Below, one piece after another: positions 11,488-24,467 of a stretch of 64,000 nucleotides of DNA. Below the pieces are notes generated by a model. That model had not been told where the DNA came from, did not search any database, and was given only the letters and a program-made list of their open reading frames with translations. This stretch comes from an uncultured Acidobacteriota bacterium (lineage in GTDB: Bacteria; Acidobacteriota; Thermoanaerobaculia; Gp7-AA8), in contig CAWGHO010000001.1 in assembly GCA_963822445.1 (NCBI GenBank), forward strand, positions 704,001 through 768,000. Direction: 5' to 3'. How positions within the stretch are numbered: position 1 is the first letter of the stretch; each line of letters opens with the position of its first letter. A program made the translations under genes and the position numbers.

Positions 11488-12300
11488 ATGCGCCTGATCG
11501 TCGTCGTAACGCTGCTGCTCGTCGCCTGCCGTGAAAAGGAAGCGATCGTGGTCGGCTCGAAGAACTTCACCGAGTCGGTGATCCTCGGCGAACTGATCGC
11601 CCAGCGGCTCGAGAAAGCCGGCTGCAGCGTGGAGCGCAAGCTCGATCTCGGGGGCACGCTCGTCTGCGACAAGGCCATCACCGCCGGCGCTCTCGACGTC
11701 TACCCCGAATACTCCGGTACCGCGCAGGCGGCGATCCTCGGCGGGAAAGTGCCGATGCGCGACATTCCGGCCGCGTACGCGAAACGCGGCCTGCACTGGG
11801 GTCCCGCACTCGGCTTCGAGAACACCTTCGCCATGATCGTGCGCAAAGCCGACGCGGAACGGCTCGGGCTGCGACGCATCTCCGATCTCGCGAAGGTCGC
11901 GCAGACCTTCCGCGCCGGGTTCGGCTACGAATTCGTCGACCGTCCCGACGGCTGGACCGGTCTGCAACGCCACTACGGTCTCAACTTCGCCATCGCCCCT
12001 CGGACGATGGATCTCGGGTTGACCTATCGCGCGCTCGCCGCGAGTCAGGTCGACCTGATCGCCGGCAACTCCACGGACGGCCTCATCGACTCCCTCGGCC
12101 TGATCGTGCTCGAAGACGATCGCCGCTTCTTTCCGGAGTACGACGCGGCCATCGTTTCCCGCAATGACATCGCGCGGAAATGCGTCGCCGCACCGGCCGT
12201 GCTCGAGTCGTTGCGCGGAACGCTCGACGCGGCCGCGATGCGGCGGCTCAACTACGCGGTCGACGGGTTGAAGAAGTCTCCCGCCGACGTCGTCAGGTGA
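11488..12300 (+). CDS. Glycine betaine/choline ABC substrate-binding lipoprotein
   Basis: Lipobox LVAC, VGSKNFTES, YPEYSGT, DRPDG, LEDDRRFFP. Confidence 0.9.
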   Translation: MRLIVVVTLLLVACREKEAIVVGSKNFTESVILGELIAQRLEKAGCSVERKLDLGGTLVCDKAITAGALDVYPEYSGTAQAAILGGKVPMRDIPAAYAKRGLHWGPALGFENTFAMIVRKADAERLGLRRISDLAKVAQTFRAGFGYEFVDRPDGWTGLQRHYGLNFAIAPRTMDLGLTYRALAASQVDLIAGNSTDGLIDSLGLIVLEDDRRFFPEYDAAIVSRNDIARKCVAAPAVLESLRGTLDAAAMRRLNYAVDGLKKSPADVVR

Positions 12301-12343
12301 GAGGTGCTACCCTCTCCCTCATCCAGAGCACTACTGCCGAACC

Positions 12344-15300
12344 GTGAAACAAGGGAAACGGTTTCTCCCGTGGCTGGGCGTCTCGCTCGCACTGCTTGTG
12401 GGCATTGCCGTCTGGTTCATACAGCCGCTGCGACCATCGTCGCTGGCGCGATTGGCCGCGGCGACACCGGGCGACGCGCGCTTGATCGAGGCTCGCATCA
12501 GCGGTGGATTCCAGTGGGCACCGTTTCCGGGATCGAAACGCCGCGAAACTGGCACGCGCACACTGTCGATGCTCGCGGCCGCGCATCAGATTCTGCAGAG
12601 CACGGAAGAAAGATCGCCCCATGCTGCCGCTGTCGCGCAGCTCTTTGCGGATCACTCAGACGTCGCGATCGCGGAGCTGACCGCGATCGCTCAGGAGAGC
12701 CGCGAGGCCGCGGTGTGGAACGATCTCGGCGCGGCTCACTACGATGCGGCCGCTCGAAGCGGATCCGCCGAGCACCTGATGGATGCGCTCGCGGCCGTCG
12801 ATCAGGCGCTTCTTTTCGACCCCGGATTTTCCGAGGCCCTCTTCAATCGCGCGCTGGTTCTGGAGCGCTTTCACTTGCGCGATGCTGCAGCGAGCGCATG
12901 GCGTGACTTCCTCGCGCACGCTCCGTCCGACGGATGGCGTGATGAGGCCCAGCGGCATCTGGACGTCCTGACTGCGCCGCGGCAGACATTCGCGACCGAG
13001 ATCAAATCGCACTATCCCCGGTTGCAGGCCGGCGATCGCGCGGCCGCACGAAACCTGCTTCGTCTCGATGCGGGCGACGCACGCTATTTCGGCGAGACCG
13101 AGGGGCTGGCGCGTTGGGGCGAGGCCTGGCTGAAGCGTGACGCCGGTGCCGGGCAGCATCTCGAGGCGGTCAAGACGCTCGCGGCGGAGCTGGTCGCCTT
13201 CAACGGTGAAGCGCTTCTGCTGGACTCGGTGGCGACGATCGAGCGCGCGACCGAACGAGAGCGGCGTGCGCTCGCACGGGGACATGTCACCTACCGGGAC
13301 GGACGCCTCGCCTACGTGGAGCGGGACTTTGCCGAAGCGGAGCAACTTCTGCAGGCGGCGGTGCGCGATCTCACGCCGGGCAGCAGTCCGCTCGCGAGCA
13401 TGGCTCGTCTCGACGCGGCTGCGGCTATGTTCTGGCAGGGCCGTCACTCCGAAGCTGAATCAGAGTTTCGCGCGCTGCAACCCGCGGCGCCGGCAAAGTA
13501 CGCGGCTCTCCGCGCTACGATCGACTGGCGGTTCGCCGTGTGTTCCCTGGCTCGCGCCGACACGGGCAAATCCCTCTCTCACCTGAGCCGCGCCATCGAG
13601 GCCTTCAGCCGCCTGGGGGAGGCCAGCCACGCGGCTTACCTGCACAACATCACATCGCAGGCATACGACGGCGTCCGCGATCATCAGCGCGCCGCTCATC
13701 ATCGAGCGCTGGCGCTTCGCGTTCTGGGCCCGACGTCGAATGACCGCCTCGTCCACGCGATCAACGGAATCAGCCATGCCGCGGTGCAACTCAAGCAATG
13801 GCGTAGGGCGCGATCCTTTGTCACGGTGCAGCTCACGCTGAACGCAGCGACGGTGAACGATGCCGAGCTCCAGATCAGCGCGCTCCTGCGACGTGCGCTG
13901 CTGCACACCCACCTCGGCGACCGCGCTGCGGCCGCGTCGGACCTGCGTACCGCGCAGGCGGTCACTGCGAGCGTCTCGGATCCGGCGCATCGCACGAAGC
14001 TCCAGATCGATTGCGATACCACAACGGCGCTCATTTCGGATGATCCACGGACAGCGATCGCACTGCTCACCGCCGCCCTCGAGTTCCAGGCTGCAAAGGG
14101 ATGGCATGGACTGATGCCGCAGATGTACCTGCGGCGGGGGCGCATGTACCTGGCGCTGCACGACCGCGAACGCGCCGCATCCGACTTCGAGAGCGGGATC
14201 GCGCTGATGGAGAAGTACCGGGAGACGATCGAGCTGGGCGAGCAGCGCTGGGGGATGCTCGACGCGGCGGAAGAGCTCTTTGACGAAGCCATCCGCGAGG
14301 CGTTGCGCGGCGGCGCGGCGCCGGCGTTCGCGTATGCGGAGCGGCGGCGAGCGCGCTCGCTCTCCGACACGATAAAGAACGCACGAGTCTTCGATCACAC
14401 CCTTCTGCCTCCCGAAACGCTCGTCGTCGAATACGCAGCGTTGCCGGAGAAACTGCTCATCTTCACGGTCAGCCGGACGGGCATCGAAGTGCGTGAGACC
14501 GCCGTCTCGCAAACGCAGCTTACGGCGCTCGCGGAGCAATTCGCCGCGGCCCACGGTGAAGCCGATCCCAGGGAACGGGCAAAGCTCGCGACACGGCTGG
14601 GCGAGCGTCTCCTCGCGCCCATCCGCACGTCCATCGCCGCACACCGCGAGGTGGCGTTCGTGACGGACGCCTCCACGTCGGGAATCGCGTTCGCCGCACT
14701 TCCAGGCATCGCGCCAGAGAGGATGCTCGTCGAAGACGTCACGATTTCCGTATCGCCCAGCGCGCGCTTTTACCTCGCGGCGCGCAGGCGCGGTGCGAGG
14801 AAAGGAACGAGCGTTCTGATCGTGGACAGTCCCGAGAACGAGAGGCTGCGGCGCCTGACGAGAACGAGCCGGGAGGCGCAGGCGGTTCAAGCGGTGTATC
14901 CGTACGCACGCCGGCTCACCGGACACGATGCAACGCGAGCCGCATTCATCGAGGAGTCGCGAACCGCGACCATCATTCACTTCGCAGGACACGGAGTCAG
15001 CGGCGTCGAATCCGCGACTCTGATCCTGACCGCAACACCCGACGACTCCGGTCTTTTCGATGCACAGTCGATCTCGCGTCTCGACCTGCGGAAGACCGAG
15101 GTCGTCGTGCTCGCCGCATGCGACACGGCCCGAGGGCCCGTGCGATCGGCCGAAGGGGTGACCAGCGTGACGCATGCATTCCTGCAGGCGGGCGTGCCCG
15201 CCGTGATCGCAACGCTCCGGCCGCTCGACGATCGCGATGCCGCGGACTTTTTCCCGCGAATGCATCGTCATCTCGCGCGCGGCGTCTCCGCACCCGAAGC

Positions 15301-15388
15301 GTTACGGCTTGCCCAGCTCGAATGGATCGCGAACGCGCCCCGCGATCGCACGGCCGTGTGGGCGGCCGTACAGGCGATCGGCTACTGA
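12344..15388 (+). CDS. Membrane-anchored TPR + CHAT (caspase-like) protease
   Basis: N-terminal TM helix; TPR-like motifs (WNDLGAA, EALFNRALVLE); His/Cys dyad HFAGHG and VVLAACDT; C-terminal WAAVQAIG. Confidence 0.9.
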   Translation: MKQGKRFLPWLGVSLALLVGIAVWFIQPLRPSSLARLAAATPGDARLIEARISGGFQWAPFPGSKRRETGTRTLSMLAAAHQILQSTEERSPHAAAVAQLFADHSDVAIAELTAIAQESREAAVWNDLGAAHYDAAARSGSAEHLMDALAAVDQALLFDPGFSEALFNRALVLERFHLRDAAASAWRDFLAHAPSDGWRDEAQRHLDVLTAPRQTFATEIKSHYPRLQAGDRAAARNLLRLDAGDARYFGETEGLARWGEAWLKRDAGAGQHLEAVKTLAAELVAFNGEALLLDSVATIERATERERRALARGHVTYRDGRLAYVERDFAEAEQLLQAAVRDLTPGSSPLASMARLDAAAAMFWQGRHSEAESEFRALQPAAPAKYAALRATIDWRFAVCSLARADTGKSLSHLSRAIEAFSRLGEASHAAYLHNITSQAYDGVRDHQRAAHHRALALRVLGPTSNDRLVHAINGISHAAVQLKQWRRARSFVTVQLTLNAATVNDAELQISALLRRALLHTHLGDRAAAASDLRTAQAVTASVSDPAHRTKLQIDCDTTTALISDDPRTAIALLTAALEFQAAKGWHGLMPQMYLRRGRMYLALHDRERAASDFESGIALMEKYRETIELGEQRWGMLDAAEELFDEAIREALRGGAAPAFAYAERRRARSLSDTIKNARVFDHTLLPPETLVVEYAALPEKLLIFTVSRTGIEVRETAVSQTQLTALAEQFAAAHGEADPRERAKLATRLGERLLAPIRTSIAAHREVAFVTDASTSGIAFAALPGIAPERMLVEDVTISVSPSARFYLAARRRGARKGTSVLIVDSPENERLRRLTRTSREAQAVQAVYPYARRLTGHDATRAAFIEESRTATIIHFAGHGVSGVESATLILTATPDDSGLFDAQSISRLDLRKTEVVVLAACDTARGPVRSAEGVTSVTHAFLQAGVPAVIATLRPLDDRDAADFFPRMHRHLARGVSAPEALRLAQLEWIANAPRDRTAVWAAVQAIGY

Positions 15389-15453
15389 GTCGCACGCGCA
15401 GCCGGGAAAAATCGTCCACGCGGCCATCTACTCCCTTGCAGGAGGAGAAAGCC

Positions 15454-16398
15454 ATGAGCAACATGAATGATTACGTCATCGACGTCTTTGCCAACGCAAT
15501 GAAGGCTGCTGTGAACCGGGACCAGTCGACCTCTACGACACCAGGAGGGCGGGAACTGGAGATCCTCTTCTACGGAATGATGTGCTTCGATCCGCAGCGC
15601 AACGGCACGTACCGGGTCCTGTTCCCGAACGGCATGGACCTCTCGGCCCTGACCGACATTCCGGTTCATGCGGCCGGTCTGTGGGTCCGCGATCGCGGCG
15701 CGAGGGCCACGGCGCGCTGGTCCGGCTTCGCGTTCCGGAACGACTACTTCGTTCAGGGGAAGAACAAGCTGACCATCACCGGCCTCGCGCACACGCCGCT
15801 CGACGCGACGCTGTTCGAGGGGCGCGTGACTAGTCTGAAGAAGTGCGATCCCGAGTTCACCATCGGCCCCGATCCGGACGCCGTGATCGAGTTATTGGTC
15901 GACCGCGGAACGCTCAGCGCTCACGTCGTCAACAGCCAGGGAATGATTGTGGTGCGCTGGGCCGTCCAGGTCTCGGCCGGCAGCACCGTCCGCTTTACGT
16001 TCGGCGACGACTTCGTGGAGATCCCTCCGACGGTGAGTCAGGTCTTTCTCGCGAACGTCAGCGCTGGGAGCGAGGACACCAAGAACGATTTCCAACTCTT
16101 CCGGAAGCTCGCGACGAAACCGGCGAAACGACTCGAGTACAAGCGGCCCGAGCTCGATCCGCGGGACACCGGCCCGCTCGTCCTGGATGAGCCAACCTTC
16201 GGATATGACTCCACGCCGAGGAGGGTCGTCCCGGCTCCCGCTCCGGGCGGCGGTCTCCCGGCGGTCGTCGGTGTCGTTCCGCAGTCCGGAATCTCGTCCA
16301 TCGCCGCGCAGTCGAAGGTCTTCACCGCCGTCGCCTTCAGCCCCAACGTGGTCTGTTCCGCCGTGGTGTCGCGGCCGATGGCAGATGTCACTGGCTGA
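15454..16398 (+). CDS. Hypothetical beta-rich protein (314 aa), no signal peptide
   Basis: RBS GGAGG before ATG 15454; alternating beta-strand pattern, Pro/Gly-rich linker and C-terminal Cys-containing tail. Confidence 0.82.
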   Translation: MSNMNDYVIDVFANAMKAAVNRDQSTSTTPGGRELEILFYGMMCFDPQRNGTYRVLFPNGMDLSALTDIPVHAAGLWVRDRGARATARWSGFAFRNDYFVQGKNKLTITGLAHTPLDATLFEGRVTSLKKCDPEFTIGPDPDAVIELLVDRGTLSAHVVNSQGMIVVRWAVQVSAGSTVRFTFGDDFVEIPPTVSQVFLANVSAGSEDTKNDFQLFRKLATKPAKRLEYKRPELDPRDTGPLVLDEPTFGYDSTPRRVVPAPAPGGGLPAVVGVVPQSGISSIAAQSKVFTAVAFSPNVVCSAVVSRPMADVTG

Positions 16399-16440
16399 AA
16401 CTTCCCGCGCGTCGGCATCTCGCTGAGAAAGGAATCTCCG

Positions 16441-17415
16441 ATGACCATCTACGCATCGCCCGGCTATTTCCAGGAAGCGCGCGAAGTCAAAGCCGCGCTT
16501 CTCCAAAGCATGTTCGGTGTCGCGAGCGTCAGCGCGGCAAAGAAGCCTCAGGTTGCGGCGCTCTCGACGCCCAAGCTGCCCGTTTCCAACATCCTCGGCG
16601 TCGGTTACGGCGTCAAAGTCACCTCCGGCGGAGGCATCGACGTTCTCGCGGCTCGCGTGTACGTCCGGGCCAAGCTTCCCGGTCGAGCATTGCGAGACGG
16701 AGAGCGTGTCCCGGAATACATCGACGGGATTCCGACGGACATCATCCCCGTCGGGTCGATCGCAGCGCAATTTCCGCGGCCGGTGCCTTGCGGCGTTTCG
16801 TGCGGGCACGTCGACATAACCATGGGGACGCTCGGATGCCTGGTGACCTCGAACGGATCGAACCGATTCATCCTCTCGAACAACCACGTCCTCGCCAACG
16901 TGAATCAGGCGCAGCTCGGCACGGATATCCTCGAGCCGGGCCCGGCGGACGGAGGCAGCGGCAACCCGCCCATCGCCCGGCTGACGGCCTATCAACCGAT
17001 CGCCTTCAACGGCATACCGAATCAGATCGACGCCGCCCTCGCGGAGCTGACCGACCTGGCGAACGTGATTCCCGAGATCGATACGATCGGGCTGGTCACG
17101 GCACCACCGATGAACGCTGCGCTTCTGCAGTCGGTTCGGAAACATGGCTCTGCGACGCGCCAGACGCTGGGCGTGGTGATGGACCTCGCCGCGGACGTTC
17201 TCGTCACCTACGGTTCGGATGTCGCTCAATTCGGCGATCAGATCGCGGTGGCCGGTGTGAACGGAGCGTTCAGTGCGCCCGGCGATTCGGGTTCGCTCGT
17301 CATCGACGCGACGACGACCAGCCCGGTGGGACTTCTCTTTGCCGGCGGCGAAGGACTCACATTCTGCAACCACATTCCCAACGTGCTCGACACGTTCGGC
17401 GTGAGCATCGTGTAG
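16441..17415 (+). CDS. Trypsin-like (Nal1-type) serine protease with N-terminal prodomain
   Basis: GTLGCLV, triad LSNNHV / IDAA / GDSGS, VGLLFAG; RBS AAGGA. Confidence 0.88.
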   Translation: MTIYASPGYFQEAREVKAALLQSMFGVASVSAAKKPQVAALSTPKLPVSNILGVGYGVKVTSGGGIDVLAARVYVRAKLPGRALRDGERVPEYIDGIPTDIIPVGSIAAQFPRPVPCGVSCGHVDITMGTLGCLVTSNGSNRFILSNNHVLANVNQAQLGTDILEPGPADGGSGNPPIARLTAYQPIAFNGIPNQIDAALAELTDLANVIPEIDTIGLVTAPPMNAALLQSVRKHGSATRQTLGVVMDLAADVLVTYGSDVAQFGDQIAVAGVNGAFSAPGDSGSLVIDATTTSPVGLLFAGGEGLTFCNHIPNVLDTFGVSIV

Positions 17416-17430
17416 CGCACGAGGAGATCC

Positions 17431-17670
17431 ATGGCGACGATCGAGCAGATTCGTAACGCGAAGGCGGCGGCGAAACGCACGTTCGGCCGTACGCCGGGCG
17501 TCGCCGGGATCGGCATCGGGGATGGCGTCCTGCGCGTTTACGTGCAGGACGCCACGGTGATCGATCAGTTGCCACGGTCCTGCGAAGAGGTCGACATCGA
17601 GTTCGTAGTCACCGGCGAGATCAGGGCTTTCGATCCGCCGGCGCCGCCAACGGATGATGGTCGTAACTGA
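17431..17670 (+). CDS. Small protein resembling the prodomain of the upstream protease
   Basis: RBS GAGGAG; GVAGIGIG...LRVYV...LP...TGEIRA matches protease residues ~10-110. Confidence 0.75.
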   Translation: MATIEQIRNAKAAAKRTFGRTPGVAGIGIGDGVLRVYVQDATVIDQLPRSCEEVDIEFVVTGEIRAFDPPAPPTDDGRN

Positions 17671-18100
17671 TTACCCGCGTGATCTTCCAGACGCCGTCCT
17701 TGTTCTGCCAGAGGTGCGTGAACTGCGCCTCGCCCATCGGCTGCACGTCGTCCTTCCCGGGATGGGTGAACCGATGCACGCCGGTCTGCACCGCGCCGAA
17801 ACCCTTCATCGGATAGACCTCCGTTGAAACGAGGACGCGGTTCACTTTGCCGCAGATGTTGTTCTTGACCGCCTCGGTCACGGCCTTTGCGCCGAGGGTG
17901 ATGCCGCCTTCGTCGTGGTAGAACTCGACGTCGTCGGCGAACAGGCTGGCGAACTTCTCCAGGTCGCATTGATTGAAGGCCTGGAAGAGCGCCGCATCGA
18001 GCTCCGTGATTTTCTTCGTGAGTGCGGCTTCCGGTGATGCGGCGGACGCGAGAACCGGCAACGTCATGAGAGTGAGCAGCAGGAAGGCTCGTGTCTTCAT
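17621..18100 (-). CDS. Secreted NTF2-like (DUF4440-type) protein
   Basis: Signal peptide; FQAFNQCD, DVEFYHD, GVHRF, WKITRVISYDH. Confidence 0.85.
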   Translation of the reverse strand: MKTRAFLLLTLMTLPVLASAASPEAALTKKITELDAALFQAFNQCDLEKFASLFADDVEFYHDEGGITLGAKAVTEAVKNNICGKVNRVLVSTEVYPMKGFGAVQTGVHRFTHPGKDDVQPMGEAQFTHLWQNKDGVWKITRVISYDHHPLAAPADRKP

Positions 18101-18140
18101 GAGCCGGGTCTACGTCAGTCGCGCGGCCGAGGTTTCAGCT

Positions 18141-18600
18141 CTCGCCCTCGCAAATGATCGGCGATCATTCATCAAATGATCTGTGCTCGCCCCGCGAGCT
18201 GACCGGCTTCGCCTCGAAAGTGAATGCCCGTCGCGTCCGAAATGATGGTCTGTCGCCCCGCAAGTGTTTGATCCTCGGCTCGCAAGTGATGCCCTCTCGC
18301 CCCTTAAATGAGCGATCCTCGCCTCGCAAATGATCGGTGCAGTATTTGATTGGAAACTCGGACGCCCCCGGAGGCGAGGACGCATCATTTGCGGTGCGAT
18401 ACCGGATCACTTTCGTACCCACGCCTCCAGCCATCTAAATGATGGCCGGTCATCGCGTTACGCCAACACCGATAACTTACGAGGCGTGCGAGGCGTCCAT
18501 TCAAGGCGACAGGTTTCGCCTCGCGAAGCGAGCAACGATCATTTGACAAAGGATCGTTGAGCATTTGAGGGGGCGACGACCCATCATTTGAAACGCGTCG
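18141..18600. repeat. Two oppositely oriented arrays of degenerate 22-bp repeats
   Basis: Left arm 9 units at exact 22-bp period, consensus TCGCCYCGCAARTGAT; right arm about 11 reverse-complement units (ATCAYTTGCGRGGCGA). Confidence 0.85.
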
Positions 18601-21824: not shown

Positions 21825-23369
21825 TTCCACCGGCGGCGGTGGCGGCTCGACGTCCTTCACGAACGCCTTGTAATGCTCGTGCCGATCGAGAATCAGATCG
21901 ACGTAGGCCACCGGCTCGGTTCCACGCGCGAATCCGTACTTCACGACGGGATCGTTGTAGACCGCTCGCGTCGACTTGCGGATCAGCCAGTAGGCGACGT
22001 CGCTCCACTTGTCCGCGTCATCGCCGAATTTCGCCGCGAGCCGCCGCGCATCCTCGACGTGTCCGTAGCCGACGTTGTACGAGGCCAGGATGAACTTGCG
22101 GCGCTCGCTCTCCGGCTCGATCGATTCCCAGCGCTGGTCGAGCTTCCACAGATACCGGCAGGCCCCTTCGATGGCCTGTCGCGGATCGGCGGCATTCACG
22201 CGCAACTCGCGCGCCGTCGCGGGCATGATCTGCATGATGCCCACCGCGCCGGCCCACGATCGCGCCCGCGCGTTGAAGCGCGATTCCTGATACGCCTGCG
22301 ACGCGACCAGGCGCCAATCCCAGCCGGGAATGCGCGCGTATTCCTTGAAGAAATCGTCATACGGCGACAAGCGCCCCGTCTCCGCCGTCAGATACTTGCT
22401 GGCCGCGCGCTGATGAAAGCCGCGGCGGTCCTTGAAGTACTTGCGATACAGAACATTCAGCAGACCGCTCTTTCTCTTCGCCGCGATCCACGTATCGAGC
22501 TGGGCGCGCAACGCAGGCGCGTTCGTCCGGACCGCCCACACCACCTGTTGCGGCGGACCGATGGCCGGCTTCACCAGAAGGTTCGTGTACTCCCCCGCTT
22601 TCAGCGCGGCCACATTCTCCGCGGCCACGGTGTAAGCGATGTCCCCCTCGGACAACTGTTGAATCAGGCGATCGCTGGTCGCGTCGACCTCCACGACCTG
22701 GATGTCCTGCGTCAGCTCGTCGTTCAACTCCAGCAGGCGCGCGTGATACGGCGAGGTCTGCGGAACATGCACCTGCGAGCCGCCGAGCTCCGACGGCTTC
22801 GCCACGAGCTTCGCCCGCACGACCACGCCCTGCGGGTCGGACGTCTCCCGCCGCTCCCGAGCCTGGGCCTTGTTCACGTCGGCGGACGGTGTCGCGGGCG
22901 TTCCTTTCCGCTGCACGACCACCGGCGCGGTCTCGTACAAACCGCTGGTGAACGCGACGCGAGTCTCCTTCGATCCGGGCGTGATCTGCGCCGCGACGAC
23001 GTCGCCCTCACCCGCGTTCAGCTTGTCGAACAGCTCCCGGCTGTCCCGCACCACGACCGGCTTCATCTTCAGTTTGTTGTCTCTGGCGAAGGTGTTGAGG
23101 AGCTCGAACTCGTAGCCCATCGTCGCGCCGCGGTAGACGAAGTAGCCGGTGGAGTTGAAGGTGAAGAGGACCCGCAGCTCCTTCGATTCGGCGATCTGCG
23201 CGAGGTCCCGCGCGACCGGTGCAATCGGCGGGGGCGCGGGCGGCGGTGCTTCGAGGCTCTTGGTCCTGGTCTCTTCCCGCTTCGGCTCAGGGGACGGCGG
23301 TGGGGTGGTTTCGTTCCGTTGACCGCAGGCCACGACGAGCAGCGCGGCGATGACCATCCCCCGAATCAC
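21678..23369 (-). CDS. mltF: Membrane-bound lytic murein transglycosylase F (SBP + SLT)
   Basis: Lipobox VVAC; GYEFEL SBP domain; SLT motifs QESRF, GAVGIMQIMP, LASYNVG, GFARG. Confidence 0.85.
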   Translation of the reverse strand: MIRGMVIAALLVVACGQRNETTPPPSPEPKREETRTKSLEAPPPAPPPIAPVARDLAQIAESKELRVLFTFNSTGYFVYRGATMGYEFELLNTFARDNKLKMKPVVVRDSRELFDKLNAGEGDVVAAQITPGSKETRVAFTSGLYETAPVVVQRKGTPATPSADVNKAQARERRETSDPQGVVVRAKLVAKPSELGGSQVHVPQTSPYHARLLELNDELTQDIQVVEVDATSDRLIQQLSEGDIAYTVAAENVAALKAGEYTNLLVKPAIGPPQQVVWAVRTNAPALRAQLDTWIAAKRKSGLLNVLYRKYFKDRRGFHQRAASKYLTAETGRLSPYDDFFKEYARIPGWDWRLVASQAYQESRFNARARSWAGAVGIMQIMPATARELRVNAADPRQAIEGACRYLWKLDQRWESIEPESERRKFILASYNVGYGHVEDARRLAAKFGDDADKWSDVAYWLIRKSTRAVYNDPVVKYGFARGTEPVAYVDLILDRHEHYKAFVKDVEPPPPPVESTNSRLVLPLVPGECDRCDQCQGAEYEQRCSTQSGDGQNHDDHSDGDE

Positions 23370-23432
23370 GAGCCGGTTTCTCTGCACGACCGGCTCCAAT
23401 CGACGCGACACGTGCTGTTACGATGGCGTCCA

Positions 23433-24467
23433 GTGGCCGGCCGCGCGCGCAAACAGTTCGAGTGGGAAGACCTCCCCGACGCCCAGCTCCTCGACATCCG
23501 CCTCCGCGACCTCGGCGTCCGCATCGAAGGCACCTGGATCGAGGCCTGTCTCAGCGATCTTTACGAAGACCTGGAGCGCCGCGATCTCCCCTTCCGCCCG
23601 CACGCGTGGCTCTCCGGCGACTGGTTCGTGCCCGATCGCGTTCCAGGCATTGCCATCCCCTTCTACCTCGCTCATCCGCGGCTGATGAAGCTCGAGCGCA
23701 AGCAGATGCTGGAAGTGGAAGGGGGCACCGCCGCGGAGATGATGAAGATCCTCCGCCACGAATGCGGCCACGCGCTCGACAACGCGTACGGCACCACGCG
23801 CGATCCGCGGCGCCGCGAGCTGTTCGGCGATCCGTCGAAGCGCTATCCCGAGCACTACCGCCCCAACCCCGCCAGCCGCCGCTACGTGCAGCATCTCCGG
23901 CTTTACTACGCGCAGAGCCATCCTCTCGAGGATTTCGCGGAGACGTTCGCGGTGATCATCGCCTCACGCGGCGGAGGATGGCGCAGGCGTTACGCGGAAT
24001 GGCCGGCGCTGAAAAAACTCGAGTATGTCGACGCGCTGCTCGACGAGTTGCGCGGCCAGCCGCAGAAACATCGCAGCCGGGAGAAGCCCGATTCGCTCCC
24101 GACGCTGGGCATGACCCTGCGCGAGTACTACGCCGACAAGCGCGGCCGCTATCTGGTCAGCTATCCCGACATCTACGATCGCGATCTGCGGCGGCTCTTC
24201 TCCGACGATCCGAAACATCAGCGGCGCGAGCTGGCGTCGCGGTTCCTCCGCCGCAATCGCACCGAGATCCGCAGCCTCGTCGCGAACTGGACCGGCGAGT
24301 ACCAGTTCACATTGGAACAGGTGCTGAAGGACATGATCGGCCGCAGCCGCGAGTTGAAGTTGCGTGCGGCCGGGCCGGAGCGCCGTCTGAAGATGGAGTT
24401 CGCGGTCCTGCTCACAGTCAAGACGATGGATTTTCATTACAGTCGCCGGAACTGGTTCGCGCTCTGA
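23433..24467 (+). CDS. Putative zinc-binding metallopeptidase (Peptidase_Mx-like)
   Basis: LRHECGH (HExxH), YAQSHPLEDFAETF; start inferred. Confidence 0.8.
   Translation: MAGRARKQFEWEDLPDAQLLDIRLRDLGVRIEGTWIEACLSDLYEDLERRDLPFRPHAWLSGDWFVPDRVPGIAIPFYLAHPRLMKLERKQMLEVEGGTAAEMMKILRHECGHALDNAYGTTRDPRRRELFGDPSKRYPEHYRPNPASRRYVQHLRLYYAQSHPLEDFAETFAVIIASRGGGWRRRYAEWPALKKLEYVDALLDELRGQPQKHRSREKPDSLPTLGMTLREYYADKRGRYLVSYPDIYDRDLRRLFSDDPKHQRRELASRFLRRNRTEIRSLVANWTGEYQFTLEQVLKDMIGRSRELKLRAAGPERRLKMEFAVLLTVKTMDFHYSRRNWFAL

Follow-up and report, generated by a model that had tools for sequence, protein, structure and literature searches.

The window analysed here, a stretch of 64,000 nucleotides from an uncultured Acidobacteriota bacterium of the class Thermoanaerobaculia (GenBank assembly GCA_963822445.1, contig CAWGHO010000001.1, positions 704,001 to 768,000 of the forward strand), carries at positions 12344–17670 four adjacent genes that encode a membrane-anchored TPR-CHAT cysteine protease, a 314-residue protein of an unnamed family (g2), a NAL1-like serine protease with a trypsin fold (S1), and a 79-residue free-standing homologue of the N-terminal domain of S1 (g4). 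The linkage of the CHAT–g2 pair with the S1–g4 pair is real, and it recurs in two gene orders among related genomes. The reading that we favour, tentatively and as something well within reach rather than probable, is that the four genes constitute one self-contained accessory cassette of two conserved pairs that work together, in which g2 would be switched by release of its C-terminal tail.

The linkage was assessed by counting the neighbours of g2 in 19 g2-bearing places from 16 genomes. In 16 of these places a TPR-CHAT gene encoding about 1000 residues lies directly upstream of g2, separated from it by a short gap. Two further places (L011 and L012) have no CHAT gene; in both of them a Peptidase_C14 gene (PF00656, E about 5e-19) begins a few bases after g2, and the protein it encodes lacks a signal peptide. 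A caspase-fold protease thus adjoins g2 in 18 of the 19 places. In 10 of the 19, S1 lies no more than about 1 kb from g2, accompanied in nine of these ten by a g4-like gene. The co-oriented order CHAT–g2–S1–g4 is present in four places including the window, with 53–70% identity, and a convergent order is present in six, with CHAT and g2 on one strand and S1 and g4 converging from the other (g4 was undetected in one of these). Eight metagenome contigs probably carry g2 together with S1 as well, to judge from contigs of identical length among the matches to each. The original prediction for this stretch, which proposed a protease cascade, had staked itself in part on finding the CHAT pair and the trypsin pair together elsewhere, and that is what the ten places and two gene orders provide.

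A search with the g2 protein gave matches in 11 of the 24 other genomes of its genus that were covered and in none of 16 more distant ones, and g2 is present in a single copy in its own genome. The g2 profile was found in 9 of 72 genomes of the same family, in none of 228 from other families of the class, and in one of 400 across the phylum, that one belonging again to the same family; a scan of one genome per species gave seven loci, all in Thermoanaerobaculia or in Acidobacteriota metagenome-assembled genomes. S1 is rare in these genomes: it is present in one copy in its own genome, and five relatives have 1, 1, 1, 2, and 6 matches, the best of which always lies beside g2.

In a quick maximum-likelihood tree of 39 rows, S1 genes from co-oriented and from convergent loci do not group as sisters; the rows comprise the four co-oriented and six convergent sequences, four from plasmids, and 25 of 119 listed homologues. 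The six S1 proteins of the convergent type form a clade of their own (support 100), and those of the window type lie within a 33-row clade together with S1 proteins of Bacillus, Clostridium, Rhizobium, Rubrobacter, and cyanobacteria. Additionally, the four co-oriented cassettes have no flanking genes in common. Since the association is thus found in two gene orders, with two S1 lineages and in four genomic contexts, a functional link explains it better than either a single inherited operon or chance. Pairs of S1 and g4 are seen in Acidobacteriota, Rubrobacter, and Bacillus.

All four genes lie on the plus strand, as originally described, with the CHAT gene at 12344–15388, g2 at 15454–16398, S1 at 16441–17415, and g4 at 17431–17670, so that the gaps between the open reading frames (ORFs) are 65, 42, and 15 nt. 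A GGAGG-like motif precedes each ATG of g2, S1, and g4 by 6–9 nt, and the GC content at third codon positions of these three genes is 0.78–0.83. The cassette is flanked upstream by a gene of a glycine-betaine ATP-binding cassette transporter (OpuAC) and downstream by a SnoaL/DUF4440 gene. Because the OpuAC gene stops at 12300, the CHAT ORF has no room for an upstream extension. The promoter and terminator scan of positions 11800–18300 was uninformative, with one promoter-like site versus 0.7 expected and six terminator-like sites versus 3.9. In line with what was noted before, no gasdermin, cas, or sigma gene is recognised in the window by Pfam, PADLOC, a scan of ten flanking ORFs, and a genome-wide sigma scan (54 matches to Sigma70_r4_2 in the genome, none within the window); neither the four proteins nor the ten flanking ORFs scanned contain a cas, SAVED, Csx30, or Cas7-11/gRAMP family. 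A separate ORF of 864 codons with a weak match to Peptidase_Mx, a zinc metallopeptidase family, is located 4 kb downstream of the cassette (21873–24467, plus strand).

The surroundings of the related cassettes are diverse. The convergent cassette of L018, whose context looks like a defence island, lies beside genes for a MotA/ExbB-like protein with a long coiled-coil tail (L018:4711-6165) and for a Tubulin_2 protein of 1346 residues (L018:12915-16955). Co-oriented cassettes are adjoined by a gene for a TIR_2 protein in L021 (3820-4809, minus strand) and for a Uma2 restriction-endonuclease-like protein in L010 (10777-11616, minus strand).

The CHAT protein, 1014 residues long, starts with about seven residues that include Lys2, Lys5, and Arg6, followed by one helix of transmembrane (TM) grade, a feature absent from the original prediction. 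This putative signal anchor, residues ~8–29 (12365–12430), coincides with the maximum of the 19-residue Kyte–Doolittle mean, 2.21 at residue 8, versus maxima of 1.40, 1.25, and 0.91 in the other three proteins, and it aligns with the TM/linker region of DdvA. Several sub-threshold TPR matches are followed by the CHAT domain (PF12770, E 3.1e-48, 165.1 bits with a cut-off of 24) in residues 747–1013 (14582–15382). The catalytic dyad is intact, as had been claimed: His883 (codon 14990–14992) and Cys926 (codon 15119–15121) are invariant in all 14 aligned homologues. PADLOC gave only a weak BovA match to the CHAT domain. The sole match among PDB sequences is DdvA (8rot_B/8rw5, E 4.7e-13, phmmer), in two stretches, residues 12–379 and 855–997 of the query, that extend from the helix and linker through the TPR region to the CHAT core. 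The protein is not the counterpart of Csx29 that had been envisaged; its homology is to the TPR-CHAT sensor that DdvA has in the periplasm, and a signal anchor stands at its N-terminus. An outward orientation of the CHAT domain, away from the cytoplasm, is predicted on the grounds of the homology to the periplasmic DdvA domain, of a signal anchor that obeys the positive-inside rule, and of the Sec-type signal peptides of its paralogues. The genome (G000) has 11 CHAT-domain matches, mostly in frames of 1000–1350 residues; ten of them are at C2:445120, C1:541213, C3:1420449, C3:1425061, C3:511982, C3:1251507, C2:452025, C3:221997, C2:1384082, and C3:579809. The full-size paralogues that were inspected start with Sec-type signal peptides, and none of them is accompanied by a g2 gene.

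No zinc anti-sigma domain (HxxxCxxC) precedes the helix of the window protein, where only the seven or so residues are present. Such an N-terminus, followed by a TM helix, is found in six relatives (L018:8714-12819, L019:9015-13282, L029:9308-13455, L030:4700-8934, L032:3045-7258, and L034:8619-12694), which are five of the six relatives of the convergent type and L034. In the two of them that were scanned, Pfam zf-HC2 matches below its threshold. A gene with matches to Sigma70_r4 or r4_2, mostly just below the cut-off and above it in L030, overlaps the start of the CHAT gene in five of the six; the sixth, L018, has only a weak helix-turn-helix match upstream. In the convergent-type locus L019, a second and shorter CHAT protein of 478 residues is encoded just upstream of the sigma-like gene (L019:13289-14725, minus strand). 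In two co-oriented relatives, a stretch homologous to the TM helix of the CHAT protein (L020:4728-4821 and L021:4869-4932) precedes every ATG, GTG, or TTG of its frame, which may reflect an unusual start codon or an assembly error.

The AlphaFold model of g2 has a mean predicted local distance difference test (pLDDT) of 78.9 and a predicted template modelling score of 0.77, and it is built of three parts. The core, residues ~33–250, is rich in β structure, with most blocks of ten residues at pLDDT above 90 and two at 72–73. The Pro-rich linker that follows (residues ~251–294, positions 16204–16335) is disordered, with pLDDT below 50. The C-terminal tail, residues 295–314, has blocks at pLDDT 96 and 87 and is docked on the core. 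All 25 diverse members of the family that were aligned share Gly41, Cys44, Leu56, Pro58, Gly60, His72, Gly110, Asp132, Phe135, Gly152, Leu154, Asn201, Phe213, and Cys301. The tail motif TP-x-x-x-Cys-Ser is present in the 17 long and six short forms among them, and the two forms of the convergent type end instead in C-x-N-T-G-C-C, so that of the tail only Cys301 aligns across all 25. Such a Cys-His-Asp-Cys pattern suggests that g2 has a site for metal binding or catalysis, which would be closed by the tail. The long linker, as well as an N-terminal helix, is confined to the co-oriented type. The family is small: a search of 1.84 billion proteins gave 225 cluster representatives at E ≤ 0.001, and most of these have 235–275 residues and begin at the first strand.

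The searches with g2 gave no family name. The protein has no match in Pfam (E ≤ 0.1), NCBIfam, PADLOC, or PHROGs; ten distant members that were scanned contain no relevant Pfam family, and ten that were looked up have no informative cluster name. Foldseek returned nothing at E ≤ 0.001 for the model against the PDB, the best row being a cohesin (E 0.013, TM-score 0.11), and none at E ≤ 0.001 against viral models. VIA-align against 48,161 chains gave a single chain at Z ≥ 2 (2j71_A, Z 2.0, 72 residues), and the ESM Atlas gave no usable match. A gasdermin is neither matched in Pfam and PADLOC nor present among the rows of the structure searches, by which an unlisted gasdermin family is not excluded; the blanks of the structure searches likewise neither prove a new fold nor exclude a gasdermin. 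A predicted complex of g2 with CHAT residues 560–1014 scored 0.00 and 0.25 with the mark set at 0.32, in runs without controls. Some copies of g2 look broken: one is split over two frames (L017:7294-7945), and two matches contain an in-frame TGA (G015:C314:9299-10042 and G041:C47:68926-69678).

S1, 324 residues long, consists of an N-terminal domain (residues 1–112) and a protease domain (residues 113–324). The match to the Pfam family Nal1_C (PF25819) is marginal (E 4.8e-6, 26.4 bits with a cut-off of 26.1), and NAL1 is matched weakly among PDB sequences (E 1e-4). By fold, however, NAL1 is the best match, and the earlier assignment of S1 as Nal1-like stands: for a model with pLDDT 90.9, Foldseek ranks NAL1 chains first (E 1.4e-15, probability 1.0, about 335 columns, TM-score about 0.53), followed by Streptomyces griseus protease B (3sgb_E, E 1.3e-11, TM-score 0.84 over the target) and α-lytic protease. 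The triad His149, Asp197, and Ser283 (GDSG), reported before as intact, is invariant in 52 of 52 sequences. In agreement with the earlier description of S1, no export signal is apparent in its sequence or in the Kyte–Doolittle scan, and by the same approach neither a signal peptide nor a TM segment is present in g2 or g4. The N-terminal domain matches no Pfam family and hence no pro-region family. The wider family is very large: of 8000 candidates that were scored, 7622 pass E ≤ 0.001, and they come from Acidobacteriota, Cyanobacteria, Chloroflexota, and Actinomycetota. Relatives of S1 are found in 33 plasmid records and in only three phage records, and among PHROGs it matches phrog_20754 ‘protease’ (E 7.8e-49). 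In Clostridium botulinum group III and C. novyi, plasmid records (H5-H9, H17-H22) contain from 2 to 23 S1-similar places each, which suggests a local expansion of the family. In a Rhizobium lusitanum plasmid (L028:3298-6879), a radical SAM gene and an HEXXH peptide-modification gene precede an S1 homologue, an arrangement that hints at a role in peptide maturation.

The relation of g4 to S1 is seen only by comparison of profiles, as BLASTP alone is not significant (E 0.095). The g4 family aligned by hhalign with residues 1–112 of S1 gives a probability of 91.7 (E 7.6e-7, 38 columns), covering residues 67–111 at the end of the N-terminal domain. Controls gave 0.4 for the protease part, 6.9 and 9.1 for reversed alignments, and at most 2.3 in 20 column shuffles. 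No Pfam family matches g4 at E ≤ 0.1, and its profile finds only chance matches among PDB sequences (E 1.3 and 1.5). None of 18 members of the g4 family matches a relevant Pfam family at E ≤ 1; Trypco models are contained in Pfam. The view of g4 as a free prodomain has to be divided accordingly: its homology to the N-terminal domain of S1 is borne out, but the corresponding part of NAL1 is an assembly domain and not a cleaved prodomain. In rice NAL1, the part that precedes the protease domain is a binding site for ATP, and its contacts build trimers and an active hexameric cage (PMC12012508). By analogy, a free copy of the N-domain such as g4 could cap, block, or seed the assembly of S1. A g4-like gene follows S1 in a Rubrobacter plasmid and precedes S1 in one of Bacillus thuringiensis; neither pair has a CHAT gene nearby. 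In both of these plasmids (L027:5977-9257 and L035:2692-5951, respectively), the S1 and g4-like genes adjoin a sulP sulfate permease gene.

A lead on how the two pairs may be connected is provided by a short motif. The junction of the N-terminal and protease domains in the window-type S1 clade reads ..VGD(L/I)xAQ(F/S/A)(P/A/S).., with AQ present in all nine window-type sequences and in L010, versus one of 18 other S1 homologues. In six of 11 g2 proteins of the co-oriented type, A(V/I)AQ-TP is located exactly at the start of the tail. The g2 of the window has AF-SP at this position, and an insertion private to this genome, 12 residues upstream within the linker, contains SIAAQ, which is identical with part of the junction of its own S1 (GSIAAQFP), as seen in the alignments and in a k-mer listing. 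A site of AQ type shared by the S1 junction and g2 is a candidate cleavage site that comes from comparison of sequences.

Within the reading of one cassette that we favour, the CHAT protein would face outward and sense a cue from the envelope or from an invader. The g2 protein would be a cytoplasmic latent output protein, with its conserved Cys-Ser tail docked on the β-rich core, and a protease cut in the linker ahead of the tail would license it. In the window cassette S1 would be the likely cutter, with g4 tuning its assembly or activity, and in two related loci (L011 and L012) the cytosolic caspase C14 would take the place of the cutter. In the sister, convergent form, a sensor with a zinc anti-sigma domain and a sigma gene would link outside and inside by transcription; in the window form this sigma/anti-sigma link would have been lost. 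The topology, the tail-release step, the role of S1 as a cutter, and a role of the cassette in conflict or stress are all inferred. It is established that latent effectors can be unlocked by a protease encoded next to them (PMC12642450). We can speculate further, although we consider it rather improbable, that g2 founds a family with a new fold, whose members would be latent effectors or signalling adaptors held by a Cys-Ser tail clamp, possibly via a Cys-His-Asp-Cys metal site, and that the cassette forms a sigma-free protease relay across the envelope leading from an outward-facing DdvA-like CHAT sensor to a NAL1-like cage protease and on to g2, cut at the site that copies the S1 junction.

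Several observations weigh against the favoured reading. The role of CHAT in the window form is without a mechanism, because the domain predicted to be outside cannot reach cytoplasmic partners. Six places have CHAT and g2 but no S1 (within the DNA that was fetched), and together with the tight CHAT–g2 spacing, the most constant feature of all, they argue for a direct relation of g2 to CHAT rather than to S1. In many bacteria S1 and g4 form a pair alone, and therefore have a function independent of CHAT or g2. The g2 of the convergent type adjoins S1 yet has no long linker. The AQ motif, which is short, was found post hoc, and is not universal, is absent from 5 of 11 co-oriented g2 tails, including the canonical position in the window g2. 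The tree that separates the two S1 lineages was a quick search with long branches. In PADLOC, no defence family corresponds to g2, S1, or g4. Finally, a contig of 4.1 kb (L031) encodes a protein, P0197, in which a degenerate g2-like domain is fused to a helical region and no protease is seen nearby; the N-terminal 330 residues of P0197 match no Pfam family and have no similarity to the C14 protease.

Other explanations draw on much of the same evidence. In the direct cascade of the original prediction, TPR-CHAT would cut g2, the S1 zymogen, or both, and g4 would be an inhibitor or prodomain of S1. The constancy of the CHAT–g2 adjacency (16 of 19 places) speaks for it, as does the pairing of g2 with C14, which suggests that the caspase fold itself is the partner of g2. 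The homology of g4 to the S1 N-domain fits as well, and so does the resemblance of the S1 protease domain to proteases of the α-lytic type, whose pro-regions are folding catalysts and inhibitors. Moreover, a prokaryotic cascade from CHAT to caspase is in print (bioRxiv 10.1101/2023.06.23.546230). Direct cutting of the neighbours is, however, topologically hard, since the CHAT domain is predicted outside the cytoplasm and g2, S1, and g4 have neither a signal peptide nor a TM segment; in addition, the authors of the DdvA study propose self-cleavage and not cleavage of a partner (PMC11506125). We therefore take this cascade to be unlikely, if still worth serious consideration. Coupling by transcription alone, in which the cassette would derive from a sigma/anti-sigma operon and g2, S1, and g4 would be members of a regulon that do not cut one another, appears somewhat less likely again. 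It would agree with the convergent loci, where the sigma-like gene, the zinc-finger-TM-TPR-CHAT gene, and g2 form one gene run, as well as with DdvA/DdvS, which governs a defence island by transcription according to the same study (PMC11506125). Yet the window form has no anti-sigma domain and the window no sigma gene, the four genes stay together in four genomes at 53–70% identity, and g2 pairs with a cytosolic caspase at loci without a sigma gene.

The small proteins may alternatively be partners in a simpler sense, g2 inhibiting or chaperoning the caspase-fold enzyme and g4 inhibiting S1, with the proteases acting on outside targets or in turnover. Each protease indeed has a small signal-less neighbour across a tight gap, and the staphostatins are a known case of inhibitors that lack a signal and are encoded next to exported cysteine proteases; in NAL1, moreover, the domain of which g4 is a copy touches the protease domain. 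Against two such protease–inhibitor pairs, a CHAT protein exported by Sec would not be folded in the cytoplasm and would therefore need no inhibitor there, and g2, with its 240–314 residues and an invariant set of Cys, His, Asp, and Cys, resembles an enzyme or metal-binding protein more than a plug. The joint travel of both pairs would also be left unexplained, and we regard this explanation as improbable. That the modules are unrelated and merely stand side by side in variable genome islands seems the least likely. The occurrence of S1 and g4 alone in other phyla, the six CHAT–g2 places without S1, and the island-type flanking genes of the relatives (TIR_2, Uma2, MotA-like, tubulin-like) are what would be expected of chance neighbours, whereas the finding that the two pairs lie no more than about 1 kb apart in 10 of 19 places is not, given that most of these genomes hold only one or two copies of S1 in 5–7 Mb; nor are the two gene orders, the two distant S1 lineages, and the lack of common flanks among the four co-oriented genomes.

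[quoted passage not shown] The window CHAT protein has a similar single N-terminal TM helix and a His-Cys dyad, and the match spans the TM-proximal linker, the TPR region, and CHAT; sister loci in related genomes retain the zinc-finger N-terminus and an upstream sigma-like gene. In contrast, the window protein has no anti-sigma domain and no adjacent gene for a sigma factor of the extracytoplasmic function type (OpuAC being upstream), no g2-, S1-, or g4-like neighbour is reported for DdvA in the available part of that paper (PMC11506125), and DdvA is described there as controlling operons of the cyclic-oligonucleotide-based antiphage signalling system (CBASS) and of CRISPR, none of which is present at the window cassette. 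The zinc-finger anti-sigma factors of the DdvA type are reported, again in the text accessible to us, only in Myxococcota and in one Comamonas (PMC11506125); zinc-finger-TM-TPR-CHAT proteins with an upstream sigma-like gene occur in Acidobacteriota as well.

A second likeness is to the defence modules in which proteases are coupled to effectors, which, in the accessible part of PMC12642450, include Pepco/Trypco, EACC1, metallo-β-lactamase-fold and α/β hydrolases, and bacterial gasdermins, with Pepco activated by a cut in its own C-terminal tail and CATASP listed as a caspase-associated component. In these modules, as here, a protease recurs in close genetic pairing with a small protein that belongs to no enzymatic family known so far, the proteases include serine as well as caspase-like ones, and the C-terminal tail of g2 behind its linker is arranged as it would be for release by a single cut. 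The differences are that g2 and g4 match none of those families (by Pfam and PADLOC, with CATASP outside the comparison), that the proteases of the window have no fusion to STAND, Avs, or another cytoplasmic sensor, and that the CHAT domain of the cassette is predicted to be extracytoplasmic, with two proteases and two partners occurring together.

Among other proteases, S1 shares with rice NAL1 (8PMM, 8HAU, 7Y77) a trypsin fold placed behind a small β-rich N-terminal domain, although it has 324 residues compared with 582 in the longest NAL1 chain, and it is a bacterial accessory gene product whereas NAL1 is a plant developmental regulator. A separate copy of the N-domain is not known for NAL1. 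The protease domain of S1 also fits well with those of α-lytic protease and Streptomyces griseus protease B, but S1 has no signal peptide and its N-domain matches no pro-region family. Craspase (Csx29–Csx30) and the SAVED-CHAT to PCaspase system show, in the accessible reports, that CHAT can act as a gated switch cutting a neighbour and that a two-step cascade exists; those CHAT proteins are, however, cytoplasmic and driven by a CRISPR complex or by cyclic nucleotides, and at the window there is no cas, SAVED, or Csx30, the PDB sequence search having given DdvA only.

What appears to be new in the cassette, in a comparison that had CATASP outside it, is the g2 partner family, its association with an envelope sensor of the DdvA type and with a NAL1-like protease having a free N-domain, and the joint presence of two proteases and two partners. 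Our literature searches gave no description of the four-gene combination or of the g2 family, the supplements of PMC11506125 (table S7) and of PMC12642450 being outside their view. Latent effectors gated by proteases are emerging as a main logic of bacterial immunity, and the known cases are cytoplasmic and use few partner families. To these the cassette adds a partner family for which neither a Pfam model nor a structural match was found, tied to both caspase-fold and NAL1-like proteases, and it links the protease–effector theme to the envelope sensor of DdvA. The S1–g4 pair, in turn, provides a bacterial context for the plant yield gene NAL1, in which a free copy of the N-terminal domain may regulate the assembly of a protease cage.

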